Source: Minisyncoccota bacterium (GTDB lineage Bacteria > Patescibacteriota > Minisyncoccia > Phycocordibacterales > SBAW01). Taken from it: a DNA stretch of 64,000 bases. Where the stretch lies: positions 1 through 64,000 of the forward strand of contig DASZWM010000007.1 of the NCBI GenBank assembly GCA_035546615.1, given 5' to 3'. The notes under the pieces were generated by a model. It was given only the letters and a program-made list of their open reading frames with translations. It was not told the DNA's origin and ran no database searches. Of this stretch, positions 3,001-63,429 are shown piece by piece (positions within the stretch are counted from its first letter, which is position 1; every line of letters starts with the position of its first letter). Made by a program: the position numbers and the translations under genes.

Positions 3001-6000
3001 CGCCGTGGCGCCGCCGCCCGTCCAGCCCCCGCTGTTATACACAACGCGCAGTTGGCCGCCGCCGCCCACGACATTGTCGCCCTTGAGGATGACGCCGTTG
3101 CCGGAGGTCTGGTTGTAGATGGTCGGGTTCGCGCCGACGGAGTTAAGCGTAAGCGTGTTGTTTGTAGAGTCGAATGCAAAGTCGGAATCATCGGTTATCT
3201 GGCTGCCTGCGCCGATAAAAGGCACGCGGCCGGCAGTGAGGCTCGTAACCCGCAGATTAGTGGTTGTCGCGGTGCCGTTTACCGTTAGGCCGCCGCCCGC
3301 CGCGCCGTTGCCAATCGTTGAGCTTCCGAAGACGCCGATGGATTGCACCGTCGAGCTTGGCGTGAGGAAGGCTGTAGCGCCGGAACCAACGATCTTCCAG
3401 TCACGGAACGCGTTGGCGTAGTAGTCCTGGGATGTGGTCGAGAATGCGCCGCCGGTCGAGGCCCAGTAATTTGCGGATGTGGTCGAGAAGAAGTAGCCCT
3501 TGTCGAAGAGAGCGAGCGTCGAAGTGGAGAGGCGCGAGTTGAAGGTGTTCCAGTCGGTCGACGAGAGATAGCCGTCGGTCGAGCCGCCGGACTGGCTGAT
3601 AGAGAACACGCCGGTTGAGACATTGTACGAAAGCGGGCCGGTCGCGGAGATAGAGGTGGAGCCGAGCAGGCCCAGCGTGTTGGTTGCAGTAAGGCTGTAG
3701 CCGCCGGTGCTGTTGCCTACCAGAATATTTCCGTACGAAGGAGCGGCCGAAAGTCCGGTGCCGCCGTACATGACGCCGAGCGATGAGGTTGCAACCACCG
3801 AGCCCTGCGCGTTGGTGGTAAGGAGCGCGGAGCGCACGCCGAGGATAGCCAGGCCGGTGGTCGTGGCGGTCGTCGTGGTGGAGTAGCGGCCGACGAAGTC
3901 GGTGAGCGTCGTGGTGCCCAAGACCGCGAGGCCGCCGCGGGAGAAGATGCCCGAGATGCCGACATTAATGCCCCCCTGCGCGTATATGTCGCCGCCGACA
4001 TTGAGGTTGTCGGCAATGTTCGCAACGCCGACCTCAAGCGAGCCGATGTTGGCGGCCGGGAGCTTCGCGCCGTTTATATCGACCACCTTCACCGTACTGC
4101 TGTTGCTGGTGACGTAGGCGTATTTGCCCGAGAGGCTCAGGCCGCGCGGGTTGCCGCCGGTCGCGAACGTGCCGACCGAAGTGATGCTCGCGAGGTTGTG
4201 CACGTCGAGCACGACGAGGTTGCCGGACGTGTCGGTAACGTACGCGTAGTCGCCGGCCGCCTCAACCGTGTAGTAGCCGGTGCCGGTCTTGGAGCCCGCC
4301 AGGCTGATGGAGGCCGGGTTGCTTATGTCGAGCACGTAGAGGCCGCCGGAAGCGTCCGCAACATAGAGGTAGCGGCCGGACGCGTACAAGGTCGCCGGAA
4401 CGCTCAGGCCGGTGTAGCTGTATACGGCCGTCGGGCTTGCCGGGTTGCTGATGTCGACGGAAGTGACGGAGCCGTTGTAGATGGAGCCCACGTACAGGTA
4501 CTTGCCCTGCACCGCGACCGAAGACCCCGAGCCGATAGGCGTGCCGGGGGACGAGTACTGGCCCACGATAACGGGCGCCGCCGGGTTGGCGATGTCGACG
4601 ATGTTGACCATGCCGGTGTCGAGGTTCGGCGCGTAGAGGTAGCGGCCGGAGAGCGCGAGCGAAATAGGATGGCCCGCGCCGGAGAGCGTGGAAACGAGGG
4701 TCGGTACCGCCGGGTTGGAGACGTCGATGATAACGAGACCCGCGGACGCGTCGCCGACGTACGCGTACTTGCCGGAGACTACGATGCTCTGCGCTTGGGT
4801 GGTGCCCGTGTAGGAGCCGACGAGCTTGGGGTTGCCCGGCTGGGTGATGTCGAGGATGCGCACGTTTCCGGCGGCAACGTAGGAGTAATGGCCGGAAGTG
4901 TTGATGCCGTATGAAGTCCCGCCGACTAAGGTCGAGGTCGCCAGGGTCGGCGTGCCGCTTGCCACCTGGAGTATATTGCCGCCCGCGACGGTGAGCTTCT
5001 GGGAAGGCGACGTGGTGCCGAAGCCGGCGAGACCGCCGAAGGACGCGATGCCCGAGTTGTAGAAGCCGGTCGTGGTGGCGTTGTCGATGGTCGCGCCTCC
5101 GACCACTTCGAGCTTGGAGAGCGTCGAGGTCGAGGTAAAGCCGATGAGCACCTGGTCGGTCGCGGTCGTCAGGCGGATGCCCGAGCCGTTGAAGTGGGTC
5201 CAGTTGACGTCCGAGCCGGACGCGCCCGCGTCGGTGCCGCACTGGAATTGTCCGGTCGCGGAGTTCCATAGGAGCTTGTCGACCGAGCCGGAGCAGGAAG
5301 AGAGGTTGGCGCCGGTTATCCTGCCGTTTATGTACAGGTTCGTCGTGGTCGAAGTGCCGCTCGTAATGACATCGCCCGGGAAGGTATACACGCTCGAGGA
5401 ATTGCCGCCGAAGGTTCCCGCCTGCGTGGTGATGACGCCGGTGGATGAGGTGTACGAGATGACCGACTGGCCCGAGAGGCTGGTCGAGGAGATCTTGTTG
5501 TTGAAGACGCTCCAGTCGGTATTTGTCAGGAAGCCCGGCTGGGAAGCGTTGGCCTTTTGAGCGCCGGCGTAGTCGATGGAGATAAGGCCGGCGCCGTTAT
5601 CGTTGAAGTCGGACGAAGCGAAGGATGCGGCGCCCTTAGTGCTGCCGTCTGCCTTCGCGTCCTGAATGGAGAACGTGCCGGAGCTTGGGTTGTAGAACAG
5701 CGGCGCGGTGGCGTTGAGCGAGCCGGTCGTAACGAGGCCGAGGCTCGAGGTCGAGGTAAGCGTGTACGTACCATTGCTGTTGCCCACCAAAAGGTTTCCG
5801 TAGCTCGGAGGGGTCGAGAGTCCCGTGCCGCCGTAGATGACCGAGAGCGTCGACGTTGCCGACACGGCGCCGTTAATGGCCTGCAGGGGTCCGGTGATGT
5901 TGGAGATGGTTACGCCGCCGTTGAATGTGTTGCTGTTCGTAAACGTATTGCTGGAGTAGGTCTTCGGAATCGTGCTTGATGCGTCGACGAAATGGATAGC

Positions 6001-9000
6001 CGACGTGGTTGAGAAGAAATTGTTCTGCGTCTTCCAGTAGTCGGCCGAACTGGTCGAGAAGCCGACGAGCGTCTGCTGGGAGAGGAAGTAAAGGGCTGAT
6101 GTCGTGGAGAACGCCTGACCCTGATTGACAGAGAGGAAATATGAAGCAGAAGTCGTGGAGAAGAAATTATTCTGCGTCTTCCAGTAATCGGCCGAGGTGG
6201 TGGAGAACGAGTTCGCGAGGTAGTACGAGCCTTCCTGGCCGTCCAGCGTGCCCGTCCAGTCGCCCGCGCGGTCGAGCGTCAATGCGCCGCCGACATTCAG
6301 GAGGCCGGAGCCGGTGAGGTCGGTGAAGTACTCGGAGTTGAGACCCAGTATCGCGGAGTACAGCGAGGTAGAGGTCGCGTTGGTGGTGGTGCCGAAGGTA
6401 ACGGTGAGAGCGGAAATGGTCGACGACGAGTATGCGGTGAGGCCTGCGCCGAACTGCTGCAAGGCGGCCCAGGTATTCGAGTTCGAGAGGTTAAGGCCCC
6501 AATCGCTTATCCCCGCGCTGCCGTCATAGCTTGAGCCGGCGAGCGTCGCGTTGTGGGAAAGCGCGCTGAGGCTGGTGCCGAGCTGCTTGCCGCTGATGGT
6601 CGAGTTAGTAAGTCCCGCGTTATCGAGCGTGCCGGAAAGCGTAGGGGCGAACGTGAATGCGCCGCCCGTGTTCGTTATCCTGATGCCGAGAGTCTGCCCG
6701 TTCTGCGTGAGCGTCGAGGTGGAAAGCGTAAGCGCGCCCGTCTGCGCCGTGCCGCCGCCGGTCTGCGAAAGCGACAGGACGCCGGTGTTTGAGATGACGC
6801 CCGTTGCGGGAACATAGCTGATGCCCGTACCCGCCGAGAGAGAAGTGGAGCCGAGCAGGCCCAGTGTGTTCGTGGCGGAGAGCGCGTAGCCGCCGGTGCC
6901 GTTCCCTACCAGAATGTTTCCGTACGACGGCGCTGCGGTCAGCCCCGTGCCTCCGTACAGGACGCCGACGGAAGAGGTTGCGGAAACTACGCCATTGATC
7001 GCCTGGAGCGGGCCGGTGAGGTTGGAGATAGTTACGCCGCCGTTGAAGGTATTGGAATTCGTGAACGTGTTGGCGGTGTAGGTCTTCGGGATGGTCGTGG
7101 AAGACGTAACGAACCACATAGCGGAAGTGGTGGAGAAGAAGTTATTCTGCGTCTTCCAATAGTCTGCAGAGGTAGTCGAGAACGCAAGATTCTGGTTATT
7201 TGCTAGGAAGTAGAGGGCGGAGGTGGTGCTGAAGGCATTGCCCTGGTTCTGCGAGAGGAAGTATGCGGCGCTGGTGGTCGAGAAGAAATAGCCCTTGTCG
7301 AAGAGGCCGAGGGTGGAGGTGGAAAGGCGGCTGTTGAAGGAATTCCAGTCCGTGCTTGAGAGATAGCCGTCGGTCGAGCCGCCGGACTGGCTGATAGTGA
7401 AAATACCGGTCGAAGAGTTATAGGCGAGCGGCGCAAGTGCCGAGAGGCTGGCCGGGGTAAGGAAGCCGAGGCTGGATGTCGGCGCAAGGTCGTAGCCGCC
7501 TGCGCTGTTGCCCAGGAGCACCTGGCCGTAGGCCGGAGCGAGCGTGAGGCCGGTGCCGCCGTACACGACACCGATGCTCGTAGTTGCCGACACGAGGCCG
7601 TTAATAGCCTGCAGCGGCCCGGTGAGATTGGAAACGTACAGCGAGTCGATGGTTGCGAGCGTTGTCGACGAAGTAAGGACGCGCGTGCTGGTGGCGAAGA
7701 AGCTGCTTGAGGTCGCGTTGGTAAACTTTGCCGTTGAGGGGGTCGTGGCGCCGATAGGCGTGCTGTTTATCGTGCCGTTCGAAATAGTGAGGTTGTCGGC
7801 TACGTACGCGTCGGCTACGATGCTGCCGTGCCAAACGCCGGTCGAGACGGTTCCGACGTTGGAGGAGCCGAGCACCGTCAGCGTGGTGAAGACCGCGCCC
7901 GGCGCGTTGAGCGTCGTGCCGTCGAAGGTGAAGGTATTGTCCCCGACGACCGCGTCTTCCGCCTGGTTGGTGAAGAATATCTGTCCTGCAACGTACGTAT
8001 CCGGCGCATCAGTGAGCCCGAGGAACGTGGTTGAGCCGCCTCCGCCGCCGGTGCCGCAGTCGCTGCCGGTGCCCGACACCACGCCCGCCGCGTTGACGCG
8101 CAAGCACTGCGTCGTACCGGTAATGGAGCCGAGCGTAAGTCCGCCCCCGAGCGTGAGCGCGCCGGTCGATGAGAACGTCGAGGTCGCCGTCGCGCCGAAG
8201 GAGGCCGACTGGTAGACCGAGAGCTTCGACGTGGAAGCCGCGTTGAACTGCTGGAGCTGGGACCAGGCGTTTGCGGTAGTGGTGCCGAAGGCGAGGCTGA
8301 ACTGTCCGGTGGTCTGGTTGTACTGGACCGGGTACGAACCGGAGATGCTGGTGGTGCCGAGCTTGCCGTTGAAAAGGGTCCAATCGCTCGAGGAAAGATA
8401 TCCGTTCGTTGAGCCGTTAGCCTGCGCGATGGAGAACACGCCGGTGTTCCCGTCGTACGAAAGCGGCGCGAGCGCGGAAAGCGACGATGTGGAGAGCAGG
8501 CCGTTGGCGGCGGCAAAGTAGCTTGCGGAAGTCGTGGAGAAGAAATTGCTGACCGACTTCCAGTACTCCGCGGAGGTGGTGCTGAAGGCATTGCCCTGGT
8601 TCTGCGAGAGGAAATACGCGGCCGAAGTTGTCGAGAACGCGTTGCCCTGGTTCTGGGCGAGGAAGTATGCGACGCTGGTGGTTGAGAAGAAATTATTCTG
8701 CGTCTTCCAGTAGTCAGTCGAGGTGGTCGAGAAGAAATTGCTGACAGACTTCCAGTACTCAGCGGATGTCGTGGAGAAGCCGGTCGAGGTGCCGCCGAAC
8801 ATGATGCCGAGGCTGGAGGTCGAGACGAGGTCGTAGCCGCCGGTTGCGTTTCCGACAAGCACCTGGCCGTAGGCCGGCGCGGTCGTCGTGCCGGTGCCGC
8901 CGTTTGCAACGCCGAGCGTGCCGCCGAGCACCAAAGTACCCGAGGACGTGATGGGGCCGCCCGTGAAGGAGAGCCCGGTGGTGCCGCCGTTGGCTGCAAC

Positions 9001-10629
9001 CGATGTTACCGAGCCGCCGCCCGAGCCGCCCAGGCCCAGAGTCGAGGTTGAGGTTACAGCCCACTTCACGCCGTCCCACACCAGCACGTCGCCGAACGCG
9101 CCGCCGCCGATGTGCGGCACCGTTGAGGAAGCGGAGATGTACGCGCCGACAGCATAGTTGCTGGAAGTGGTGGAGAAGAAGTCGCGAGCCGTCTTCCAGT
9201 AGTCGGCGGAGGTGGTGGAAAATCCGCTAAGGCTCTGAAGCGAGAGGAAGTATGCCGCTGAGGTTGTAGAAAATGCCTGGCCCTGATTTTGGCTGAGGAA
9301 GTACGCGGCGGAGCTGGTCGAGAAGAAGTAGCCCTTGCCGATGGAGTCGAGATACGCCTGCGCGTTCTGCGGCGTGAAGTACAGGTTGGTGGCGCCTTCG
9401 TCGAGGCCGTCGGTCGTGGTCGCGTACCACGCGGAGAGCGACAGCTTCGAGTCAAGCGCGTTCTGGAGATCGGTTTGGTTGGAAAGCGTGCCGACGATAT
9501 TGCCCCACGACGGATTGCCGCCCGCGGCGATGCCGAGCGTCGAGGTGGAAACCAGGTCGTAGCCGCCCATGGAATTGCCGAGAAGGAGCTGGCCGTAGGT
9601 CGGGGCAGTGGAAGTGCCGGTGCCGCCGTTTATCGCATTGAGCACGCCGGAGAGCGTGAACGTGCCGGTCGACGTGATAGGCCCGCCGAGGAAGGAGAGG
9701 CCGGTCGTGCCGCCGCTTGCGTCAACCGACGTTACCGAGCCGTTCCCGCCGCCCGAATTGCCGCCGCCGTTGTGGCTGTGCGAAGGGTTCGGCGAAAGCG
9801 CCGCGGCCTCTATTTTCGGGAGAAGGAAATTCTGCAGCGCGAGCAGGCGGAGGTTGAGTATGTCTTCGGTGACGCCGGAACCCTGCACCAGACGCTCGGT
9901 AACCGGATAGGTGTTGTAGACCGGGTACGAGTTCTGGACGATCGTCGTGGTCGCGGTGCCTGCGGCGACCGGAGCAGACGGGCCGTACGCCGGCGAGGTC
10001 TGCGTGCCCGCCGCATACTGCGCGGGAACGCGCGGGCCGAAGAGGAACGAAAATACCTGCGAGAAGACATCGGACGCGACAGACGGCGATGACTTCGCCG
10101 GAAGGGAGAATCCGAACTGGAGCGGATGCGCCCCGAAGAACGGCGACTCCACCTGCGCGAGCGACGCCGCAAGCGTGGTCTGGTTCTGCATCGCGACCTC
10201 GCGCTGGTGCATCGCGCCGGCGTACGCTACGGCGCCGAAGAGCAGCATGCCCCCCAGCGCCATCACCGCGTTGCGCGCCAGAAGCGAAGAGAAGCGCGAG
10301 GCGACGCCGTTCGCGGAAGGAACGGCGTCGGCCTCAACCGCCTTCTTCGCAGGCAGGCCGTTTGCCTTGCGGTACGTCTCGTTCTCAAGCTTGCGCTCCT
10401 TCGCTAACGCAGACGCGCGCTCAAGCTTTGCCTGAGCGCGCGCCGCCTCGAATTCTCCAAGGGACTTCTCCTCGACGAACCATGCGCCGTTTATCTGCGA
10501 GCCGCGCAGCTTGCCGTCGCGCAAAAGGCGGCCGACATAGTCCTGAGCGCAGTTCATCCGCTTGGCGGCAGAACGGGCCGAGAGCATCGGTTCGCCTGAA
10601 TTTGAGATGATTTGTTTAGCGGGTGACAT
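1..10629 (-). CDS. Giant repetitive cell-surface protein, 3' partial (at least 3543 aa in window; stop lies beyond window start). N-terminal HTH_17-like domain, coiled segment, single TM helix, then Gly/Ser/Thr-rich repeats, FSTTSA-type 16-aa tandem repeats and a 7-blade LVIVD beta-propeller. Alternative start ATG 10587.
   Basis: Revcomp of 1-60 gives ...GIGTNVPAEALQAARTSGITAISTIN, revcomp of 4981-5040 gives ...SFGGLAGFGTTSPSQKLTVAGG, and the ATG at 10629 is in frame with the codon ending at nt 1 (10629 = 3 x 3543). No listed ORF on either strand in 1-10600 carries the FSTTSA repeats, so the true frame is uninterrupted and lacks an in-window stop. All listed ORFs here are Ser/Thr/Pro/Arg-rich alternative-frame artefacts. 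Confidence 0.8.
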   Translation of the reverse strand, partial: MSPAKQIISNSGEPMLSARSAAKRMNCAQDYVGRLLRDGKLRGSQINGAWFVEEKSLGEFEAARAQAKLERASALAKERKLENETYRKANGLPAKKAVEADAVPSANGVASRFSSLLARNAVMALGGMLLFGAVAYAGAMHQREVAMQNQTTLAASLAQVESPFFGAHPLQFGFSLPAKSSPSVASDVFSQVFSFLFGPRVPAQYAAGTQTSPAYGPSAPVAAGTATTTIVQNSYPVYNTYPVTERLVQGSGVTEDILNLRLLALQNFLLPKIEAAALSPNPSHSHNGGGNSGGGNGSVTSVDASGGTTGLSFLGGPITSTGTFTLSGVLNAINGGTGTSTAPTYGQLLLGNSMGGYDLVSTSTLGIAAGGNPSWGNIVGTLSNQTDLQNALDSKLSLSAWYATTTDGLDEGATNLYFTPQNAQAYLDSIGKGYFFSTSSAAYFLSQNQGQAFSTTSAAYFLSLQSLSGFSTTSADYWKTARDFFSTTSSNYAVGAYISASSTVPHIGGGAFGDVLVWDGVKWAVTSTSTLGLGGSGGGSVTSVAANGGTTGLSFTGGPITSSGTLVLGGTLGVANGGTGTTTAPAYGQVLVGNATGGYDLVSTSSLGIMFGGTSTGFSTTSAEYWKSVSNFFSTTSTDYWKTQNNFFSTTSVAYFLAQNQGNAFSTTSAAYFLSQNQGNAFSTTSAEYWKSVSNFFSTTSASYFAAANGLLSTSSLSALAPLSYDGNTGVFSIAQANGSTNGYLSSSDWTLFNGKLGTTSISGSYPVQYNQTTGQFSLAFGTTTANAWSQLQQFNAASTSKLSVYQSASFGATATSTFSSTGALTLGGGLTLGSITGTTQCLRVNAAGVVSGTGSDCGTGGGGGSTTFLGLTDAPDTYVAGQIFFTNQAEDAVVGDNTFTFDGTTLNAPGAVFTTLTVLGSSNVGTVSTGVWHGSIVADAYVADNLTISNGTINSTPIGATTPSTAKFTNATSSSFFATSTRVLTSSTTLATIDSLYVSNLTGPLQAINGLVSATTSIGVVYGGTGLTLAPAYGQVLLGNSAGGYDLAPTSSLGFLTPASLSALAPLAYNSSTGIFTISQSGGSTDGYLSSTDWNSFNSRLSTSTLGLFDKGYFFSTTSAAYFLSQNQGNAFSTTSALYFLANNQNLAFSTTSADYWKTQNNFFSTTSAMWFVTSSTTIPKTYTANTFTNSNTFNGGVTISNLTGPLQAINGVVSATSSVGVLYGGTGLTAAPSYGNILVGNGTGGYALSATNTLGLLGSTSLSAGTGISYVPATGVISNTGVLSLSQTGGGTAQTGALTLSTSTLTQNGQTLGIRITNTGGAFTFAPTLSGTLDNAGLTNSTISGKQLGTSLSALSHNATLAGSSYDGSAGISDWGLNLSNSNTWAALQQFGAGLTAYSSSTISALTVTFGTTTNATSTSLYSAILGLNSEYFTDLTGSGLLNVGGALTLDRAGDWTGTLDGQEGSYYLANSFSTTSADYWKTQNNFFSTTSASYFLSVNQGQAFSTTSALYFLSQQTLVGFSTSSADYWKTQNNFFSTTSAIHFVDASSTIPKTYSSNTFTNSNTFNGGVTISNITGPLQAINGAVSATSTLSVIYGGTGLSTPPSYGNLLVGNSNGTYTLTSTSSLGLVTTGSLNATAPLFYNPSSGTFSIQDAKADGSTKGAASFASSDFNDNGAGLISIDYAGAQKANASQPGFLTNTDWSVFNNKISSTSLSGQSVISYTSSTGVITTQAGTFGGNSSSVYTFPGDVITSGTSTTTNLYINGRITGANLSSCSGSVDKLLWNSATGQFQCGTDAGASGSDVNWTHFNGSGIRLTTATDQVLIGFTSTSTLSKLEVVGGATIDNATTTGFYNSGIASFGGLAGFGTTSPSQKLTVAGGNILQVASGTPTLATSTLVGGTSYGINTSGHYSYVAAGNVRILDITQPGNPKLVGSYTGTTQAQSIVVSGKYAYVGDASAGLVIIDVSNPAVPTLVSTLSGAGHPISLALSGRYLYAPNLDTGMVNIVDIANPAAPVIVGQYSSPGTPIGSGSSVAVQGKYLYVGSIYNGSVTSVDISNPASPTAVYSYTGLSVPATLYASGRYLYVADASGGLYVLDISNPASISLAGSKTGTGYYTVEAAGDYAYVTDTSGNLVVLDVHNLASITSVGTFATGGNPRGLSLSGKYAYVTSNSSTVKVVDINGAKLPAANIGSLEVGVANIADNLNVGGDIYAQGGINVGISGIFSRGGLAVLGTTTLTDFVGRYSTTTTATTTGLAILGVRSALLTTNAQGSVVATSSLGVMYGGTGLSAAPSYGNILVGNSTGGYSLTATNTLGLLGSTSISATGPLSYNVSTGVFSISQSGGSTDGYLSSTDWNTFNSRLSTSTLALFDKGYFFSTTSANYWASTGGAFSTTSQDYYANAFRDWKIVGSGATAFLTPSSTVQSIGVFGSSTIGNGAAGGGLTVNGTATTTNLRVTSLTAGRVPFIGAGSQITDDSDFAFDSTNNTLTLNSVGANPTIYNQTSGNGVILKGDNVVGGGGQLRVVYNSGGWTGGGATATSTTYFQITNASNNNATFMGGTYGADTQLNRLQFNASSTQITDLNWTNTTVPISLFGLINSSAAKKVFTVQGASAQTADLAQFLNNAGTVLTRIDASGNFTTQQATTTNLAITSLLNTLLSTNANGSVISTTVSSPLSFSGNTLSIQQANGAQNGYLSSTDWTTFNNKISSTSLSATGPLSYNPSTGVFTISQSGASTDGYLSSSDWNSFNSRLSTTTLGLFDKGYFFSTTSALYFLAQNQGQAFSTTSAAYFLSVNQGNAFSTTSQNYYANTFRDWKIVAGALTPTTTLGIQVNASSTIGNGTLGLTVNGPATTTGRAYFSGNVGIGTSNPLAALQVSGGYGYFTSGITLNRDAHVTTNVDGSSDAGIYTPGGLNDLYLAVGSSNNVIAPAGNFGIGTTSPYSKLSVVGQVVAANYIATTSAQNVLPNLLSTNATTTSFGINNETFTDLTGSGLSNVGGVLTLDRTGDWTGTFDGQEGSYYLANSFSTTSAVYFLSQNQGNAFSTTSATYFLSLFDKGYFFSTTSADYWKTQNNFFSTTSASYFSSQGLAFSTTSENYYANAFRDWKIVNGALVPTTTLGIIVNASSTIGNGTLGLTVNGSATTTGNAYIAGNVGIGTQSPSARLDIQASYTTTGFPLSVKNPGYYNAYFQGTSASNQASFYLENDRGSFASYGGFLYGGSSSSLGSLFGAPRADRLFMFADGASNLGYYVGTLTAQPFVIGTNNIERARVDGNGNLGIGTTSPFARLSVGGNTYLGGSLTATGTVQLSNYANGALGVTSNGTLYTFSTSTWTFASSTLLADNNTFSGTNRFNGNTTLTNATSSSIYTSILGLNSEYFSDLTGSGLTNVGGALTLDRTGDWTGTLDGNEGSFYLANSFSTTSANYWQSQNNFFSTTSANYWASQGLAFSTTSENYYANAFRDWKIVAGALTPTTTIGIQVNASSTIGNGTQAGGLTIYGGATTTGNAYIAGNVGIGTNVPAEALQAARTSGITAISTIN

Positions 10630-10966
10630 GTTGCCGAAAAAACTTTTGTTTGTGCGGAGAGTTCGGGTATTTCGTGTTTCAACAGAAGAGGTAGCGACCC
10701 GCCGATGTGCCGCTACCCTGTTACTAATTATTTTACGCGAGTGTCGCGCTTTTTCCGTCTATAATATGCGAAGAAAAATGTGGATATCTTATTGCACTGC
10801 AACGGAATTTTGAAAATTTATTTTCAAAAAATAATCAGCTTAAAATGAGTTTGCTGTTTAAAATTCCATGAAAAAATATTCGGCTTACATACCCTTTTCT
10901 CGTCTTAAAAATTGTATAGGAGAGATATGTTGTAATCAAAAGCTACATCGGCTCTCCCATACGATA

Positions 10967-10997
10967 TCTCGGATAACTTCTCGGCTAATCTCGGATA
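10967..10997 (-). promoter_or_regulatory. Three direct repeats TCTCGG(A/C)TA spaced 12 and 10 bp (one helical turn), in the AT-rich region upstream of the giant gene; candidate transcription-factor binding sites
   Basis: tctcggata (10967), tctcggcta (10979), tctcggata (10989), read directly from sequence; sits in the 500-bp low-GC intergenic region 10630-11138. Confidence 0.3.
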
Positions 10998-11065
10998 GCT
11001 TCATAATGCTATTTTACCTCCTAAGTATGCCGGAGGGGCAAAAAACCAAGTTCTAGTATTAAAAA

Positions 11066-11099
11066 CGGCGTCTTTTGACAAGTTGTCAAACTGACGCCG
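11066..11099 (-). terminator. Rho-independent terminator of the 11139-11978 gene. Imperfect 16/17-bp stem cggcgtcttttgacaa / ttgtcaaactgacgccg with a TTGACAA-G-TTGTCAA core, followed on the minus strand by TTTTT
   Basis: Inverted repeat read from sequence; T-run is the revcomp of aaaaa at 11061-11065; located 40 nt after the stop at 11139. Confidence 0.55.
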
Positions 11100-11138
11100 A
11101 ATACTAAATAAAATATGAATTCGAAAATCTGACGCGAT

Positions 11139-11978
11139 CTAATGCAAAGAGTAGCCGACGCTTGCGGTCTTCCCCGCTTCTATGACCGTCGTTGAATTGA
11201 CGAGCAGTGAGCTCAGCGCGACGACCGCGAACACGACGGCGCCGAGCGTCATGATGCTGAATGCCGGCATGAGCATGCCGACGGAATATTTTTTTGACGG
11301 CGCGTATTCCGTTATTGTCACTTCCTCGTCCGCGTCCTCTTCTGCCGCTTTCGGCATGACCGACGCTTTCGCTTTTTTGCTTGCGGGCTTCTGTATTTCC
11401 GGCAGCGAAGGCGCCGCGTCTTCTATATAGCGCAGGCCCGTCTTTTTCTTTGTCTCCGCAAGGCGTATCGGGATATGTATAGATTCGCGCGCCGCTTCGG
11501 GCTCTATCTCCACAAAAACTTTTTCTTCCGCCTCTTCAACTTTTATTTCTTCAGGCGCGAAGTCTGCTATCAGCTCTTCCACTTGGATCGGGCGGCGGAA
11601 ACTTTGTATCGGTTCCGGAATGACGGGAGCAGTCGCCTCAGCTTCGGTCTCCTCTTCTTCAGCTGTCTCTTCTTCTTTTTCCGCAGCCGGCTCCGGCTTC
11701 TCTTCCTCGGTCTCAGCGGGTTCCGGAACTTCTTCAGCCGCTTCGGCACGCACGACGGGCGCTACCGAAAGTATCTTCTTCGGCTCCTCCGCCGGCTTCG
11801 GGTTCTTGAGGTAGTCAGCCAGAAACTCGGCATCCACATACCAGGAGCGGCCCACTTTCTGGCCCACTATCTTTTTGGCGCGTATGAGCTGGCCGATATA
11901 GTCGGCATGGTATTTATACTGCTTTGCGGCAAGCCGAGTCGAGATATACCGCTTGCCCGAGATTTCCAGTTCGTCCAT
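11139..11978 (-). CDS. Membrane-tethered HTH_17 (excisionase/MerR-like) domain protein, 279 aa. N-terminal HTH, about 170-aa Glu-rich acidic linker, C-terminal TM helix
   Basis: N-term ISTRLAAKQYKYHADYIGQLIRAKKIVGQKVGRSWYVDAEFL fits the HTH_17 pattern (AAxxLxVSxxTVYRLIxxGxLPAxRIGRxWRI). C-term MLMPAFSIMTLGAVVFAVVALSSLLV is hydrophobic. N-term is paralogous to the giant gene N-term LSARSAAKRMNCAQDYVGRLLRDGKLRGSQINGAWFVEEKSL. Confidence 0.7.
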   Translation of the reverse strand: MDELEISGKRYISTRLAAKQYKYHADYIGQLIRAKKIVGQKVGRSWYVDAEFLADYLKNPKPAEEPKKILSVAPVVRAEAAEEVPEPAETEEEKPEPAAEKEEETAEEEETEAEATAPVIPEPIQSFRRPIQVEELIADFAPEEIKVEEAEEKVFVEIEPEAARESIHIPIRLAETKKKTGLRYIEDAAPSLPEIQKPASKKAKASVMPKAAEEDADEEVTITEYAPSKKYSVGMLMPAFSIMTLGAVVFAVVALSSLLVNSTTVIEAGKTASVGYSLH

Positions 11979-12032
11979 GCACTTAGAATATACCTCTGGC
12001 CGAGGTACGCAAGCAAGGGGCGGAAAATGAGC

Positions 12033-18592: not shown

Positions 18593-18622
18593 CCCGGCCT
18601 CATGGTCGGGTATTTTTTATTT
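18593..18622 (+). terminator. Plus-strand intrinsic terminator-like hairpin CCCGGCC-TCAT-GGTCGGG followed by TATTTTTTATTT; overlaps the secA stop codon
   Basis: Stem/loop/T-run read from sequence. Both flanking genes are minus-strand, so it implies a plus-strand transcript (candidate ncRNA 18360-18620), or it is a fortuitous structure. Confidence 0.4.
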
Positions 18623-21115
18623 CTTCGCTGCCATCAAGCGCTGATGTTCTTCCGTGTTCTTCATGCCGCAGTTCTTCCACTTCTTGCCTGAGCCGCAGGG
18701 GCATAGGTCATTGCGCCCGATGCCCTCCTCCGCGGCCATGGCCGCAAGATTAATGGTGGGCGTGGCCGCGGTCGGTGTTGCGGCGAGCGAAGAAGAATTC
18801 TGCGCGGCCTGCGGGGTCACCTTTTCGAGCATCTCGAACACCTGGTTCTTGAGCACCATTTCCATCTCCTTGTACATCTGGGTGCCTTCCCTGCGGTATT
18901 CGACAAGCGGGTCGCGCTGGCCGTAGGCGCGCAGGTTCACGGAGCCGCGCAGGTATTCCATGCTCTCCAAGTGCTCTACCCATAGCATGTCGAGCGTCTG
19001 AAGCACGATGTTGCGCGCGCTGGTAAGCAGCGCTTCGCGGCCGAGCTCCTCTTCTTTCTTCTTCAAAAGCTCCTGCGCTTCCGGGCTTCCCTCGGACAGC
19101 TCCGCAAGCACCGCGGCGACCTCCTCCGGCGTGCCTACGAGCACCGCGCGGCGCTTCTGGTATACGGCGCGGCGCTGGCGGTCGAGCACGTTGTCGAACT
19201 CAAGCACGTGCTTGCGGGCGTCGAAGTTGAATCCTTCTATCTTGGTCTGCGCGCTCTCAAGAGCGCGTGACACGAGCCTGTTCTGTATGGGCTCGTCCTC
19301 GGGAATGCCGAAGCGGCCCATCATCGTCTTGATGGTATCGGAGGCGAAAACGCGCATAAGGGTGTCCTCGAGCGACACGAGGAACTGCGTCTCGCCCGGG
19401 TCGCCCTGGCGGCCGGAGCGGCCGCGCAGCTGGTTGTCGATGCGGCGCGCCTCGTGGCGCTCGGTACCCACGACAAAGAGCCCGCCGAGCGAGCGCACTT
19501 CGTCGGCCTCTTCGGGGCTGGCCATGGCGCCGCCCAACTTGATGTCGACGCCGCGGCCCGCCATGTTGGTGGCGACGGTAACGCGGCCCTTCTTGCCGGC
19601 TTCGGCGACTATCTCGCCTTCGCGCTCGTGGTTCTTGGCGTTGAGTACTTCGTGCGGAATGCCTTCGCGCTTGAGGTACGCCGACAGAAGCTCGTTCTTT
19701 TCTATTGATACGGTGCCCACCAGGACCGGCTGGCCCTTTTCGTGCATGAGCTTTATCTGCTTGGAGAGCGCGCTGAACTTGCCGTTCTCGGTCTGAAAGA
19801 TGAGGTCGTTGTGGTCTTTGCGCACGACCGGCTGGTTGGTCGGCACTTCGGCGACCTCAAGGCCGTATACCTTATAGAATTCCTCGCTCGACGTGGCGGC
19901 GGTGCCGGTCATGCCCGCGAGCTTCCCGTACAGCTTGAAATAGTTCTGATAGGTTATCGAGGCGAACGTGCGCGATTCCTTCTGCACGACCACTCCTTCC
20001 TTGGCCTCTATGGCCTGGTGCAGGCCCTCGCTCCAGCGGCGGCCCGGCTGCATGCGGCCGGTCGACTCGTCTACGATGATGACCTCGCCGTCCTTCACGA
20101 CATACGCGATATCACGCTTGTAGAGGGCGCGTGCGCGCACGGCGGTCTCCAGGTGATGCACGTACTTGATGCCCTTTTCGGTGTAGAGGTCGTCGATGCC
20201 CAGGAGCTTCTCCGCATGGGTGATGCCTTCGTCCGTCATCTGTATCGCCTTGCGCTTCTCGTCCACGGTGTAGTCGGTCTCCGGAGAAAGCGCCGCGGAG
20301 ATGCGCGCGAAGGTGCGGTACAGGTCCTCCGAATCCGCGCCGGGGGCGGAGATGATGAGCGGCGTGCGCGCCTCGTCGATGAGGATGGAGTCAATCTCGT
20401 CCACTATCGCGAAGCTGTGGCCGCGCTGGCGCAGGTCGGACGCCTTGTACGCGATGTTGTCGCGCAGATAATCGAACCCGAATTCGGAATTGGTGCCGTA
20501 CGTGATGTCGGCGGCGTACGCCTGCGCGCGCGAGCACGGGCGCAGAAAATCATGAAAGACGCGGAAGCTCCCTTCCTGGTCGCGCATCGCGTCCTCTTCC
20601 TTCTTCACGTGCGAAGAATCGTACAGGTAGGAGGAGTCGTGATTGATGACGCCGACGGAAAGCCCGAGCGCCGCGTACACCTGGCCCATCCATACGGCGT
20701 CGCGGCGGGCGAGATAGTCGTTGACGGTGATGACATGCACGCCCTTGTTCTCAAGCGCGTTCAAGTACGCGGGCAGGGTGGCGACCAGTGTCTTGCCTTC
20801 GCCGGTCTTCATCTCGGCGATGCCGCCGCGGTGGAGCACCAGGCCGCCGATGAGCTGCACGTCGAAGTGCCGCAGCTTCATTGTGCGCTTTGCCGCCTCG
20901 CGCACGGCGGCGAACGCCTCCGGCAGGATGTCGTCCAGCGTGGCGCCGGCGGCGAGCCGGTTGCGGAAGGCATGCGTCTTTTCCCTCAGCGCCTCCGGGG
21001 AAAGCGCCTGCATATCGGCCTCCAGGCCGTTTACGGCCTCTACCGCCGCCGAAGCTCCTTTCAGGGCCTGGGCGGGGGCGGAGCCGAAGAGATTCTTGAG
21101 CGAAAACATGAGCAA
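18617..21115 (-). CDS. secA: Preprotein translocase ATPase SecA (TTG start per track at 21115; in-frame ATG at 21109 more likely)
   Basis: MFSLKNLFGS..., DEAD-like motor motifs, C-terminal zinc-binding CPCGSGKKWKNCG. Confidence 0.95.
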   Translation of the reverse strand: MLMFSLKNLFGSAPAQALKGASAAVEAVNGLEADMQALSPEALREKTHAFRNRLAAGATLDDILPEAFAAVREAAKRTMKLRHFDVQLIGGLVLHRGGIAEMKTGEGKTLVATLPAYLNALENKGVHVITVNDYLARRDAVWMGQVYAALGLSVGVINHDSSYLYDSSHVKKEEDAMRDQEGSFRVFHDFLRPCSRAQAYAADITYGTNSEFGFDYLRDNIAYKASDLRQRGHSFAIVDEIDSILIDEARTPLIISAPGADSEDLYRTFARISAALSPETDYTVDEKRKAIQMTDEGITHAEKLLGIDDLYTEKGIKYVHHLETAVRARALYKRDIAYVVKDGEVIIVDESTGRMQPGRRWSEGLHQAIEAKEGVVVQKESRTFASITYQNYFKLYGKLAGMTGTAATSSEEFYKVYGLEVAEVPTNQPVVRKDHNDLIFQTENGKFSALSKQIKLMHEKGQPVLVGTVSIEKNELLSAYLKREGIPHEVLNAKNHEREGEIVAEAGKKGRVTVATNMAGRGVDIKLGGAMASPEEADEVRSLGGLFVVGTERHEARRIDNQLRGRSGRQGDPGETQFLVSLEDTLMRVFASDTIKTMMGRFGIPEDEPIQNRLVSRALESAQTKIEGFNFDARKHVLEFDNVLDRQRRAVYQKRRAVLVGTPEEVAAVLAELSEGSPEAQELLKKKEEELGREALLTSARNIVLQTLDMLWVEHLESMEYLRGSVNLRAYGQRDPLVEYRREGTQMYKEMEMVLKNQVFEMLEKVTPQAAQNSSSLAATPTAATPTINLAAMAAEEGIGRNDLCPCGSGKKWKNCGMKNTEEHQRLMAAKK

Positions 21116-21182
21116 ATACTATACCACGAAAGGCTTCATACCGTCAGGGAGCGCTTTGCCGGGCGGCATAGGAAACGGAAAA

Positions 21183-21205
21183 GGCGTCTGCCCAGGACAG
21201 ACGCC
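21183..21205. terminator. Bidirectional intrinsic terminator: perfect hairpin aaaaGGCGTCTG-cccagga-CAGACGCCtttt
   Basis: 12-bp stem including A/T extensions, T-runs on both strands; between murB and the secA promoter region. Confidence 0.55.
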
Positions 21206-21472
21206 TTTTCCTTCGAGAGGATATTCTCGCTCTTCTACAGGAAGAAGAGCGAGTCGCGCATTATCTGCGCTTCTTTGCGGCCTTCTTTGCCTTCTTTTTC
21301 TTTGCCATAATTTTTGTGCGATACGTATCGCAAATTTAAGTGTTGCACCGATCGACCTTGTTTTTTGCGCGCTCGCGAGGGACGTCGCAAGAACAATGCT
21401 CGATGCCCTACATACCAGTATTGTTCATTGCGTATCGATGCACAATGAAAAAAAGATTTCTAGTGTGGATAA

Positions 21473-25323: not shown

Positions 25324-25647
25324 CTAGCTAACCGTGCCCCACGACGGCGTCATAAGGTCGCCTATCTGCCAATCCGCTATCTCGCGCAATATCTCGTTGT
25401 GCTCCCGGTGCTTGGGATGGTTGCGATATGTCTGCAGGGCCTCGTTGTCCCGGAATAGCCCGATGACGACGAGATGCACATTCTTGCGCATGTCGAGATT
25501 GTGCCCCGCCTGGAAGTACAAAATGCCCGCCTCCTTGCCGCCGCATTCCTCGGCGAGCGTCTGGAACCGGTCGTACACCTCCTTCTTCTTTTCCTCCGGA
25601 GCACTGTCGTAGAACGATATCAATACGATGTGCGAGAGGTATTCCAT
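25324..25647 (-). CDS. Stress-responsive alpha/beta-barrel (Dabb) domain protein
   Basis: 107 aa, HIVLISFYDSAPEEKKKEVYDRFQTL...HLVVIGLFRDNEALQTYRNHPKH. Confidence 0.65.
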   Translation of the reverse strand: MEYLSHIVLISFYDSAPEEKKKEVYDRFQTLAEECGGKEAGILYFQAGHNLDMRKNVHLVVIGLFRDNEALQTYRNHPKHREHNEILREIADWQIGDLMTPSWGTVS

Positions 25648-62457: not shown

Positions 62458-62543
62458 GGTGCCCAGGAGAGGACTTGAACCTCCATTCCCTTGCGGGAAC
62501 TACGACCTGAACGTAGCGCGTCTACCAATTTCGCCACCTGGGC
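62458..62543 (-). tRNA. tRNA-Leu(CAG), class II with long variable arm, CCA encoded
   Basis: Minus-strand cloverleaf folded by hand: acceptor GCCCAGG/CCTGGGC; D arm GCG-AAATTGGTAGA-CGC; anticodon stem CTACG/CGTAG with loop TTCAGGT; variable arm TCCC-GCAA-GGGA; T arm GGAGG-TTCAAGT-CCTCT; discriminator A + CCA. Confidence 0.85.
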
Positions 62544-63195: not shown

Positions 63196-63429
63196 GTATA
63201 CTCCCGCGAGTTCTTACTATACTGAAGCAATAATGTATACCATATCATTTTGCCAAAAATCGGGTATTTTTACAAAAAACATGGGGGAGCCGGCTGGGCT
63301 GCCGGACTCCCCCAATTCCGTCGCCCGGCCCCGGGCTACGGAAAAACTTTCTCGAATATCCACCTGAATGGCTTCGAGTAAAAACACTGTACAAGCAAAG
63401 CTTAGAAAATAAAAGATGTGGATAAAAAG

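Follow-up and report, generated by a model that had tools for sequence, protein, structure and literature searches.

In regulators of the ToxR/TcpP/CadC type, an N-terminal cytoplasmic winged helix is followed by a single membrane helix and an outward C-terminus, and these proteins bind to repeats upstream of their target promoters. In Bacillus subtilis, the MerR-like winged helix of RacA recognizes short GC-rich inverted repeats (ram), and RacA fastens DNA to the cell envelope. Recombination directionality factors, lambda-type Xis among them, assemble into filaments where direct repeats follow each other at approximately one helical turn. BldC binds as head-to-tail multimers, cooperatively and along a single DNA face, to direct repeats whose number varies from target to target (PMC5859096).

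Almost nothing is known about gene regulation in uncultured CPR/Patescibacteria, and the locus described here provides a concrete case that recurs across about 60 species. In the window (the whole stretch of 64,000 nucleotides that was analysed), a gene for a 279-aa protein with an HTH domain and one predicted membrane helix (HTH-TM) lies upstream of an intergenic gap. Downstream of the gap is a giant gene, whose translation exceeds 3543 aa before it runs off the window; in one relative (L002), the giant protein comprises 7968 aa. The search database contains an entry that is 100% identical to the 279-aa protein, which a look-up by exact sequence missed. A literature search on promoters or HTH-TM giant proteins in Patescibacteria found nothing relevant. 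Both flanking genes, as well as the terminator between them, are on the minus strand, which the sequence-only reading had left implicit. The reading that we favor, with a probability of approx. 0.6, is that the gap is the control region of the giant gene and carries a multi-site operator array, possibly bound by the flanking proteins. Its outer landmarks are as follows:

Stop codon at 11139 to ATG at 10629, minus strand: intergenic gap of 509 bp between the HTH-TM gene and the giant gene
11061..11099, minus strand: intrinsic terminator of the 279-aa HTH-TM gene, composed of a hairpin (11099..11066) and a U-run (11065..11061)
10627..10629, minus strand: start codon of the giant gene, from the translation

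The AT-rich island with a sharp drop in GC that had been proposed from the sequence is present: GC is 0.33-0.43 over 10600-11100 versus about 0.55-0.69 in the flanks. The same arrangement is found in about 60 related species of uncultured bacteria, and synteny of an HTH-TM gene, a 350-500-bp gap, and a gene with a paralogous HTH N-terminus holds at 57 of 58 loci. On the minus strand, the relatives share the order HTH-TM gene, terminator, repeat element of approx. 85 bp, AT-rich spacer, TATCCACA, -10 box, short leader motif, and ATG of the paralogous HTH gene; at this ATG starts a conserved peptide, M-(S/T)-P-x-K-K-I..G.PMLSAR. The proposed control region is conserved across Paceibacteria; the window itself belongs to a Candidatus Paceibacterota (CPR) genome.

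The hairpin at 11066-11099 with its T-run, taken earlier as the end of the upstream gene, proved to be exact. Its minus-strand RNA reads CGGCGUC-AG-UUUGACA-ACU-UGUCAAA-A-GACGCCG followed by UUUUU, and folding gives a dG of -26.3 kcal/mol (z = -5.1). A GC-containing hairpin, a U-run, and a stop codon upstream on the same strand are all in place, as in Rho-independent terminators. In 53 of 61 orthologous loci, a hairpin with a T-run is located 40-120 nt past the stop codon; thus, the position is kept, and the stem sequences are unrelated.

Beyond the terminator lies the repeat element, hereafter element A, which consists of the following parts:

10911..10997, minus strand: element A, an array of CGA(G/T)A / T(C/A)TCG half-sites, defined by an nhmmer profile and alignment
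10989..10997, minus strand: repeat copy 1, TATCCGAGA, equivalent to the half-site that the whole family has 21-22 bp before the core
10979..10987, minus strand: repeat copy 2, TAGCCGAGA, an extra half-site found only in the window, L001, and L002
10962..10975, minus strand: repeat copy 3 with the core palindrome CGAGATATCG (core 10971..10962), the most conserved part of element A
10946..10950, minus strand: degenerate fourth half-site, CGATG (family sequence CGATA), at 21 bp downstream from the core
10919..10927, minus strand: degenerate inverted half-site, TATCTCTCC (family TATCTCGG), about 46 bp downstream of the core

Three copies of TCTCGG(A/C)TA, or TA(T/G)CCGAGA on the minus strand, had been noticed at 10967, 10979, and 10989 with a spacing close to the helical turn, and they are indeed there, in steps of 12 and 10 bp. 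The window contains five matches to this motif versus 1.0 expected, a number reached by none of 100 shuffled sequences. The description of these copies as 11-bp-phased direct repeats stands in part. Helical phasing is found family-wide; however, the repeat unit is the half-site CGA(G/T)A or its complement, that is, the 5-6-bp half of a 10-bp palindrome, the family-wide half-sites lie on a 21-bp lattice around that palindrome, and the middle copy is clade-specific. On the alignment, the three repeats of the sequence-only reading correspond to the core, to a half-site lying 22 bp upstream, and to an additional copy particular to the window's clade, which accounts for the 10-12-bp spacing that was first seen. 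A pair of 15-nt copies located 22 bp apart with 93% identity suggests a local duplication.

The family consensus of element A is (CGAGAT N15) TAGCCGAGATATCG N11 CGATAT..CTTTATTTTgCAAC.TATCTCGG..ACAAT. The nhmmer profile detects the element in 41 of the 57 loci with room for it and, within the 64-kb window, at this place only (E 1.8e-14). Sites of the TCTCGG-ATAG-CCGAGA type are still present in loci that the profile misses. The invariant and near-invariant alignment columns fall in the core (10962..10975), which is the sole perfect CGAKATMTCG match in 64 kb. Of 60 orthologous gaps, 54 contain the half-site motif CCGAKAT/ATMTCGG; its density in the gaps is 4.15 per kb, compared with 1.05 per kb in the rest of these loci. 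The Obg and GatB genes further upstream show a motif background of approx. four times the uniform expectation. Conservation of the repeats in orthologous gaps, which had been proposed as a check, held where the flanking protein is only 30-77% identical. The motif is therefore both over-repeated and conserved in orthologous regions, as in an operator array.

Spacing follows the helical turn as well. Family-wide, distances between half-sites of the same orientation peak at 21-22 bp (41 pairs), 41-43 bp (40), and 10-12 bp (14), and direct-to-inverted distances peak at 5 bp (43), 25-27 bp (32), and 46-48 bp (25), counts that come from phylogenetically related sites and hence are not independent events. 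The columns between the half-sites are unconserved in the alignment. In the window, the D sites have the indices 22, 32, and 44; other clades have them at 32 and 53 or at 50 and 71. Clades also differ in half-site orientation, the window's clade having direct repeats and L004, L006, and L008 having CCGAGATCTCGG palindromes, which is the pattern expected if binding sites turn over. A metagenome scan with CCGAGATATCG-N10-12-CGATA returned 120 stretches, among which one is a true element (L168), with the same genes around it, and the others are chance matches. A pair of sites with one mismatch each at 25375-25396 in the window was considered as a second operator and rejected, as it lies in an ordinary GC-rich coding stretch (EILREIADW, minus strand).

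Half-sites of the same kind are also located at the beginning of the HTH-TM gene itself:

11940..11963, minus strand: two AT(C/A)TCG half-sites in the HTH-TM gene, at codons 6-7 (11963..11958) and 12-13 (11945..11940)
11985..12012, minus strand: promoter of the HTH-TM gene, TTGCGT...TATATT/TATTCT, ending 6-8 nt before the ATG (11978)

AT(C/A)TCG is under synonymous constraint at both positions. Ser7 is encoded by TCG in 51 of 52 HTH-TM genes and Ser13 in 45 of 51, versus only 21% TCG among the remaining serine codons of those genes. The isoleucine codon ATT is never used at the two half-site positions, and the codon of the paralogous serine in the giant gene is unconstrained. A listing of 52 loci, read by eye, reveals a TTGCAT-N16-TATACT pattern that ends 6-9 nt before the ATG. 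Since the promoter of the window ends so close to the start codon, a leaderless mRNA is implied. The promoter region (-120..-1) was also considered as a place of motif enrichment and rejected; its density is 3.85 per kb versus 3.16 per kb further upstream.

The coding-sequence half-sites bear on a different reading, in which the repeats act as RNA. Three CCGAGAU seeds, carried either by a read-through 3' UTR or by a separate small RNA, would pair with AU(C/A)UCG(G) at codons 6-8 and 12-13 of the HTH-TM mRNA and control its translation. The extreme synonymous constraint on the target codons fits such pairing, as do the exact 8-nt complementarities between element A and the 5' coding sequence (CCGAGAUU with AAUCUCGG and CGAGAUAU with AUAUCUCG); in an apparently leaderless mRNA, the first codons would be the ribosome-binding region. 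However, the strong terminator precedes element A in most loci, and the repeats have neither a conserved promoter before them nor a terminator after them. Together with a distance of approx. 190 bp to the conserved promoter block, this position past the terminator suggests that element A is probably not transcribed. Furthermore, the 21-bp helical lattice is meaningless for RNA pairing, and the flips of half-site orientation between clades would break complementarity on the sense strand while leaving recognition of double-stranded DNA intact. Nor does element A have a consensus fold: RNAalifold assigns it 0 pairs, and the stems P1 and P2 (CGAGATAT/ATATCTCG and ATATCG/CGATAT) pair at 72.4% versus 72.5% in shuffled controls and at 75.4% versus 75.1%, respectively, a covariation test that is blind to an RNA role in which the sequence is fixed for pairing in trans. 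At gathering thresholds, Rfam matches only a tRNA in the window, and matches in the gap at permissive E-values are at chance level. Thus, neither a family match nor covariation marks the gap as structured RNA, with the sole exception of a clade-specific leader hairpin at 10689-10718. On balance, an RNA function of the repeats is quite unlikely.

Alternatively, element A might be a second, distal promoter of the giant gene (-35, -10, and UP-like parts) without dedicated regulator sites, which would start transcription near 10904. The parts of the gap to be compared in this respect, from the terminator-distal end of element A to the ATG of the giant gene, are the following:

10911..10939, minus strand: possible distal promoter TTGATT-17-TACAAT, from a consensus scan only, overlapping the 3' part of element A
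10808..10829, no strand assigned: AT-only perfect palindrome TTTTGAAAAT-AA-ATTTTCAAAA, inside the unconserved AT-rich spacer
10792..10802, no strand assigned: palindrome TTGCAnTGCAA, in the window's clade only, just upstream of TATCCACA
10779..10786, minus strand: TATCCACA, an upstream promoter element that resembles a DnaA box; 39 of 46 gaps have a single copy
10730..10748, minus strand: proximal promoter with -10 box TAAAAT (10735..10730), from the alignment, and a small CGCG...CGCG hairpin before it (10748..10736)
10689..10718, minus strand: leader hairpin with a 12-bp stem, followed by CUCUUCUGUUG, in the window's clade only
10635..10665, minus strand: leader motif CGAACU..AAACAAAAG..UUUUCG, ending 2-6 nt before the ATG

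A distal promoter at 10911..10939 is possible, as the scan finds both hexamers there and the family sequence TTGCAA resembles the -35 element TTGCAT of the HTH-TM promoters across the family, located about 16-17 nt before an xAxxAT box. On the other hand, the best-conserved sequences, CGAGATATCG, CGATA, and TCTCGG, fall outside or between the putative hexamers; the -10 box, as read from the alignment, is good in the window's clade and poor elsewhere; and the single promoter-like match compares with 1.4 expected from shuffled sequences. Moreover, a promoter alone leaves the 21-bp lattice and the motif in the HTH-TM coding sequence unexplained. We regard it as improbable that element A is a promoter and nothing else.

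In the proximal promoter, TA(A/C)AAT is aligned in nearly all loci 20-22 nt before the leader motif, which would place the transcription start of the giant gene at about 10722-10725. Between element A and this promoter, the AT-rich spacer (about 10803-10910) is the least conserved stretch in a comparison of the window with L001; its length is kept though its sequence varies, as seen from the constant spacing between core and leader motif. TATCCACA is fixed 66-76 nt ahead of the leader motif, except in the window's clade, in which the distance of 117-120 nt is due to a leader insertion of approx. 47 nt that carries the hairpin. This hairpin (-19.6 kcal/mol, two compensatory pairs by RNAalifold in five sequences) could be a 5'-end stabilizer or an attenuator. 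The leader as a whole, the hairpin excepted, folds no better than shuffled sequences (z -0.34). The leader motif is found in about 45 loci with CGAA, AAAG, and TCG invariant; it has 0 pairs in the consensus fold, and the leader of the giant gene lacks a Shine-Dalgarno sequence.

The AT-rich stretch, the phased repeats, and the TATCCACA box could also be read as the DnaA box, iteron-like repeats, and unwinding region of a replication origin, or as a centromere-like or recombination site, and the RacA/Xis-like fold predicted for the flanking proteins is reminiscent of architectural proteins for DNA anchoring or recombination. Nevertheless, TATCCACA is the only DnaA-box-like site of the gap at up to one mismatch, so that there is no cluster, and the other near-matches of the window lie outside the gap. 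The box stands at a fixed distance from the -10 box and is found before two other genes of the window as well, one of them secA; it therefore behaves as a promoter element. The flanking genes are co-oriented, and GC skew changes near 10 kb, just where the giant gene begins, which points to that gene's own composition as the source of the skew. No integrase is found nearby, and synteny is stable across the class. An origin, centromere-like, or recombination function is very unlikely.

It is hardly credible that the repeats belong to a small minus-strand gene (11003..10935; 22-aa peptide MKLSEISREVIRDIVWESRCSF), since the open frame of 22-24 aa in the window, L001, and L002 and the strong Shine-Dalgarno-like AGGAGG 12 nt upstream in the window are outweighed by the finding that at least 30 of 44 loci have no ATG-initiated ORF spanning the core, by the lack of AGGAGG in L001 and L002, and by a codon pattern in three close relatives, compared by eye, in which conserved codons are fully identical and differing codons change the amino acid, the opposite of what is expected for a coding sequence. 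The 62-aa plus-strand ORF at 10868-11056 had looked spurious, and it is: stop codons break it up in L001, the closest relative.

As element A combines no RNA fold, covariation, Rfam match, or conserved ORF, the constraint on it looks to be at the DNA level, and the candidate binders are the proteins encoded on either side. Both had been described as HTH_17-like. Their N-termini are indeed paralogous (E 1e-10), but the Pfam HTH_17 assignment is sub-threshold, with scores of 19.4 and 19.1 bits versus a gathering value of 27 and an E-value of about 1e-3 for both. The full-length proteins have no Pfam match at E <= 0.01, the OmpR-type Trans_reg_C domain is undetected in them, and a PDB profile search by sequence finds no relative of the N-terminal domain. 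The AlphaFold2 model of this domain (pLDDT 80) has the order strand-strand-helix-helix-strand-strand-helix. Its invariant residues include Q30, R33, K36, and the wing K41-W46. Its top Foldseek matches are BldC, TraN, Pukovnik Xis, RacA (5i44), and RdfS, with TM 0.5-0.76, probability up to 0.99, and weak E-values of 0.2-0.7; the best structural match is BldC (6ama; TM 0.64/0.76, rmsd 2.2 A). The N-terminal domains are thus modeled, with weak E-values, as BldC/Xis/RacA-like winged helices. In the HTH-TM protein, the HTH domain is followed by a long acidic linker and the predicted membrane helix. Hydrophobic stretches are seen in the translations at residues approx. 237-262 of the 279-aa protein and approx. 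117-140 of the giant protein, which predicts that only about 17 residues of the former and thousands of the latter are outside the membrane. The giant protein is probably a surface protein that mediates attachment to host cells.

In the favored reading of element A as a multi-site operator, the half-sites would be arrayed around CGAGATATCG with the others 21, 42, and about 46 bp away on the same face of the helix, and a winged-helix protein would most likely occupy them cooperatively. The best candidates for binding appear to be the two flanking membrane-anchored proteins, through their cytoplasmic, BldC/Xis-like N-terminal domains; all loci carry both genes and the motif, a co-occurrence that has no negative set to be compared with. 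If the flanking domains bind, the two half-sites within the first 40 nt of the HTH-TM gene would provide for autoregulation. What the analysis shows is the conservation, the phasing, the lack of RNA or ORF signals, the constraint on synonymous sites, and the modeled fold class of the domain; binding by a protein, the identity of that protein, and the sign of its effect, activation or repression, are matters of inference. It is also conceivable, if rather doubtful, that the array is a membrane-docking site: both N-terminal domains would bind to the CGAGAT lattice, tether the giant gene, couple its transcription and translation with insertion, and feed back via the half-sites of the HTH-TM gene. 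Such a docking system would link the expression of a protein as large as about 8000 residues to its insertion into the membrane, and a self-docking gene-protein system of this kind would be without a described counterpart.

The design of the candidate binders, a minimal winged helix with a membrane anchor on a small as well as on a giant protein, is unusual. If the flanking proteins bind to the array, the BldC/Xis mode of DNA recognition would extend to membrane-tethered proteins. In addition, the locus yields two working promoter models for these bacteria: the apparently leaderless TTGCAT-N16-TATACT and the TATCCACA ... CGTAnAAT architecture. The second recalls the DnaA box (TTATCCACA), as 39 of 46 gaps have the 8-mer TATCCACA without change and many carry the full 9-mer (the box matches 8/9 here and 9/9 in many relatives). 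In contrast to regulation by DnaA boxes, there is a single box at a fixed distance from the -10 box, and it recurs before unrelated genes of the window; TATCCACA may thus be a general promoter element of these bacteria and not a DnaA target.

Among the described systems, ToxR-type regulators share the predicted topology of the flanking proteins; however, the ToxR domain is of the OmpR type, and the predicted extracellular part is reduced to approx. 17 residues in the HTH-TM protein and extends to thousands in the giant protein. RacA is soluble, contacts the membrane via DivIVA, and has many sites near the origin, whereas here there is one array and a built-in predicted anchor. Pukovnik Xis and RdfS belong to the same predicted fold class as the N-terminal domains; unlike Xis systems, the locus has no att site, integrase, or mobile element, and its synteny is stable in about 60 species. 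BldC of Streptomyces, a MerR-like/Xis-like soluble protein of 68 residues, recognizes the repeat AATTxxxx(C) at a spacing of approx. 9 bp with all copies head to tail, and it has no relationship to the flanking domains at the sequence level. Here, in contrast, the domain is joined in one protein to a long acidic linker with a predicted membrane helix and in the other to a giant extracellular part, and the sites combine the motif CGA(G/T)AT with a 21-bp lattice and a palindromic core. Nevertheless, the variable number of repeats in BldC targets has its parallel in the number and arrangement of half-sites, which differ between the clades of this family.

The 279-aa HTH-TM protein, which has an HTH-type N-terminal domain and one putative membrane helix, is 100% identical to a database entry named Candidatus Paceibacterota, and the window belongs to a metagenome-assembled genome of Candidatus Paceibacterota (CPR/Patescibacteria). 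On the strand of the genes, the 509-bp gap is 3' of this small gene and 5' of the giant gene. The main features are:

11978..11139, minus strand: the 279-aa HTH-TM gene (ORF translation)
start at 10629, minus strand: the giant ORF, more than 3543 codons, continuing beyond the window edge (ORF translation)
10971..10962, minus strand: core 10-bp palindrome CGAGATATCG, the sole perfect CGAKATMTCG match in 64 kb
11963..11958 and 11945..11940, minus strand: inverted half-sites AT(C/A)TCG at +16 and +34 of the HTH-TM coding sequence (codon conservation)
11979-12012, minus strand: HTH-TM promoter, TTGCAT-N16-TATACT-like, ending 6-9 nt before the ATG (52-locus listing)

The first ATG of the giant gene (10629) is its true start, since conservation of the peptide M-(S/T)-P-x-K-K-I...G-x-P-M-L-S-A-R begins there. 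As the sequence-only reading had it, GC content drops in the gap (0.33-0.43, versus about 0.55-0.69 outside), and a 62-aa plus-strand ORF within it is spurious, being broken in the orthologous locus L001. The hairpin at 11066-11099, taken in the same reading for a terminator, folds as a good intrinsic terminator on the minus strand (dG -26.3 kcal/mol, z -5.1), with a 7-bp stem, a bulge and a second 7-bp stem followed by UUUUU.

The closest relatives of the locus are L001 and a second orthologous locus, L002 (77% and 51% protein identity, respectively), which share the gene order of the window (Obg, LamG, GatB, HTH-TM, gap, giant gene). The comparative check proposed for the gap yielded DNA strikingly similar to that of the window in both, repeats included. 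Gene calls of L001 (GCA_037975565.1 contig) at this locus are unreliable because of apparent frameshifts; gatB is split into pieces of 96 and 323 aa, and an extra C immediately follows the ATG of the giant gene. Scanning one genome per species gave 63 further loci (Paceibacterota, Adlerbacteria, Nomurabacteria and related bins), and the genomes compared are carriers of the genes and motif. Of 58 loci long enough to judge, 57 have a paralogous-HTH gene that begins 350-500 bp after the HTH-TM gene, and the features inside the gap keep a fixed order: terminator, element A, AT-rich stretch, TATCCACA, -10 box and leader motif. A hairpin and T-run terminator lies 40-120 nt past the HTH-TM stop codon in 53/61 loci, with stems unrelated in sequence. 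Element A, a block of ~85 nt, was recovered with an iterated nucleotide profile in 41/57 loci, and the profile finds one copy in the 64-kb window (10984..10911, E 1.8e-14). The AT-rich stretch of about 150 nt that follows is the least conserved part, even between the window and L001.

The terminator region has features of its own. The k-mer GTCAAA (as TTGTCAAA) occurs in 31/46 gaps, usually in or beside the hairpin (about 11074-11090 in the window), a region that in many loci is the first 120 nt past the HTH-TM stop codon; TATTCGGCGTCA is common to the window, L001, L002 and L007, even where terminator stems differ. Together they may represent a further conserved motif. At two loci, L012 and L039, the hairpin is built from the half-site motif itself (GCCGAGAT-GAAA-ATCTCGGC and CCGAGAA-TTATTT-TCTCGG, a T-run after each), so that operator half-sites and terminator are merged.

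Element A has the consensus (CGAGAT-N15)-TAGCCGAGATATCG-N11-CGATAT-..CTTTATTTTgCAAC-.-TATCTCGG-..-ACAAT, and what recurs in it is a half-site of 5-6 bp, CGA(G/T)A(T) or its complement. Across 44 loci, which are phylogenetically related so that neither spacing nor motif-presence counts are independent events, half-sites in the same orientation are separated by 21-22 bp (41 pairs), 41-43 bp (40 pairs) or 10-12 bp (14 pairs), and direct-to-inverted pairs by 5 bp (43 pairs, the core palindrome itself), 25-27 bp (32) or 46-48 bp (25). These distances are sharply peaked, and the sites therefore lie on a two-helical-turn lattice, while the sequence between them varies. The three TCTCGG(A/C)TA repeats reported from the sequence are present, spaced 12 and 10 bp apart, and read TA(T/G)CCGAGA on the gene (minus) strand; the motif has 5 matches in the window against 1.0 expected (at least 5 in 0/100 shuffles). 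On the lattice, the copy at 10967 supplies the 5' half of the core palindrome, and the copy at 10989, 22 bp upstream of that palindrome, is a site shared family-wide. The remaining copy, at 10979, is an additional site confined to the window, L001 and L002, and the one-helical-turn spacing in the window arises because it adds to the two-turn lattice. A local duplication is suggested by a pair of 15-nt copies that are 93% identical and 22 bp apart. In other clades, palindromes such as CCGAGATCTCGG (L004, L006, L008) or everted pairs such as TCTCGG-ATAG-CCGAGA (L044, L048, L051, L053) take the place of the direct repeats. At least one CCGAKAT or ATMTCGG is found in 54/60 gaps, and these 7-mers reach 4.15/kb in gaps versus 1.05/kb in the rest of the loci, despite the AT-richness of the gaps.

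Half-site 6-mers also occur in the upstream obg, LamG and gatB genes at about 3x the uniform expectation, and the element A profile matches the C-terminal coding region of the Obg GTPase gene at two loci (L048:911-952, E 2e-4; L050:845-936, E 3e-7). A 14-nt inverted repeat specific to the clade of the window, ATCGTATGGGAGAG / CTCTCCTATACAAT (10911-10924 with 10952-10965), brackets the fourth half-site and overlaps a putative distal -10 box; by eye, one of its A-T pairs appears as C-G in L004, a compensatory change.

The half-site of element A is also fixed early in the HTH-TM gene, where the nucleotide sequence itself is conserved over the first 13 codons, CTA for Leu4 among them. TCG encodes Ser7 in 51/52 genes and Ser13 in 45/51, compared with 21% of the other serines of the same genes. 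The preceding codons are ATC or ATA in 50/52 (codon 6) and 44/51 (codon 12), and Leu or Val codons otherwise; ATT is never used there, versus 31% of Ile codons elsewhere. The corresponding Ser of the paralogous giant gene is unconstrained. A first impression of motif enrichment in the HTH-TM gene's own promoter was not upheld by counting. Judging from the promoter position, the HTH-TM mRNA appears leaderless. Half-sites at this position would suit autoregulation by the candidate bound protein. The main rival to a DNA-level role is that the AT(C/A)TCG codon sites could pair at the RNA level with the complementary CCGAGAU repeats. Element A, however, is probably untranscribed from either neighbour given its place beyond the terminator and some 190 bp ahead of the promoter block that is conserved.

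A conserved RNA fold and a conserved peptide were also looked for. RNAalifold predicted zero base pairs in the 44-sequence element A alignment, an Rfam scan of the gap gave no match, and in the candidate stems unpaired changes far outnumber compensated ones; the two stems implied by the palindromic motifs have 72.4% and 75.4% of cells paired, no different from column shuffles (72.5% and 75.1%). A 22-aa minus-strand ORF over the repeats is open in the three closest genomes only, and an ATG-initiated ORF across the core is absent in at least 30/44 loci. Helical phasing, turnover of orientation and the lack of a fold or a conserved ORF thus favour a constraint acting on double-stranded DNA, through protein binding.

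Downstream, TATCCACA occurs exactly once per gap in 39/46 gaps, 66-76 nt before the leader motif, and is followed at a fixed distance by a TA(A/C)AAT -10 box, usually with CG just before it. The leader motif, CGAAC..AAACAAAAG..TTTTCG, ends 2-6 nt before the ATG without a Shine-Dalgarno sequence. TATCCACA is the sole DnaA-box-like site in the gap, matching that box at 8/9 positions in the window and 9/9 in many relatives. It is best read as an element upstream of a promoter, not as a piece of an origin, because its distance to the -10 box is fixed and it recurs in the window before secA and before a LAGLIDADG-like gene. The GC-skew change near 10 kb coincides with the giant gene's own composition, and a replication origin here is very unlikely. 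A TTGATT-17-TACAAT match overlapping the 3' end of element A is plausible as a distal promoter in the window's clade and unconvincing elsewhere. That clade also has an insertion of about 47 nt that separates the leader motif from the predicted transcription start (about 10722-10725). It includes a 12-bp hairpin (10689-10718; two compensatory pairs among five sequences) which, with a U-rich stretch after it, could be a 5'-end stabiliser or an attenuator.

Upstream of secA (18617-21115), a second AT-richer gap (21116-21472, minus) has a perfect TTATCCACA at 21464-21472, then a T-run, and a 15-codon lysine-rich ORF, MAKKKKAKKAAKKRR, in the leader (about 21240), a candidate for a leader peptide or for a very small basic protein. 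Upstream of the LAGLIDADG-like gene (62500-63195), the interval 63196-63425 (minus) holds a terminator hairpin directly followed by TTATCCACA, a TACAGT -10-like box and a ~110-nt stretch with a strong GC hairpin, GGGGGAGUCCGGCAGCCCAGCCGGCUCCCCC, and a U-run at its end; this stretch may represent a small RNA or function as an attenuator. At permissive thresholds, Rfam returned a weak, chance-level match only (RgsA, 17 bits versus a gathering score of 88).

Paralogy between the N-termini of the two flanking proteins is clear, with 34% identity across 50 residues and E 1e-10. Pfam scans of both full-length proteins gave no matches; the HTH_17 likeness ascribed to them is recovered with the isolated N-terminal 70 residues of both, at 19 bits, below the gathering score of 27. 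An AlphaFold2 model of the domain (44-sequence alignment, pLDDT 80) has the order strand-strand-helix-helix-strand-strand-helix, and its best structural counterparts in the PDB, with TM up to 0.64/0.76, rmsd about 2 A and weak E-values of 0.2-0.7, are BldC, TraN, Pukovnik Xis, RacA and RdfS. All five are small MerR-like or Xis-like DNA-binding winged helices. A hydrophobic stretch follows the N-terminal domain in both translations, inspected by eye, and both look like membrane proteins with a cytoplasmic DNA-binding-type head. The giant protein (1-10629, minus) opens with the HTH-like domain and putative membrane helix that its small neighbour also has, and is built from many copies of short motifs of the FSTTSA(D/E/A)YWK and GGTG(L/T)...YG(Q/N)(V/L)L(V/L)GN types; its counterpart in L002 is 7968 residues long and carries LVIVD, RCC1 and surface Ig-like domains.

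In non-coding DNA with a terminator on one side and a conserved promoter on the other, the locus thus has a conserved, helix-phased lattice of at least four sites built from a palindromic half-site, flanked in every genome compared by two genes for predicted membrane-anchored BldC/Xis-like domains. Element A is probably a protein-binding operator array (roughly 0.6). A winged-helix protein would bind the lattice cooperatively and control the giant gene, either directly, through a putative distal promoter, or from afar across the AT-rich spacer of conserved length; autoregulation of the HTH-TM gene would come in addition. The two flanking proteins suggest themselves as this protein, and the locus would then sit at the membrane; the reading in which they do the binding takes up part of the probability of the array and is put tentatively, at perhaps a little under even odds.

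Literature searches found no description of element A, the HTH-TM family or these promoter features, and the gap appears to be a cis-regulatory region that is familiar in concept though not described before, and whose candidate regulators form an unusual pair. BldC forms head-to-tail multimers on variable numbers of direct repeats (PMC5859096), and the likeness to BldC/Xis-type proteins lies in the predicted multimerisation on repeats. Membership of that family is putative, given the sub-threshold Pfam HTH_17 score and weak fold-match E-values; the motif and lattice of BldC itself are unlike those described here. The arrangement also resembles ToxR-type membrane-bound regulators in its logic, but it differs from them in having no OmpR-type domain.
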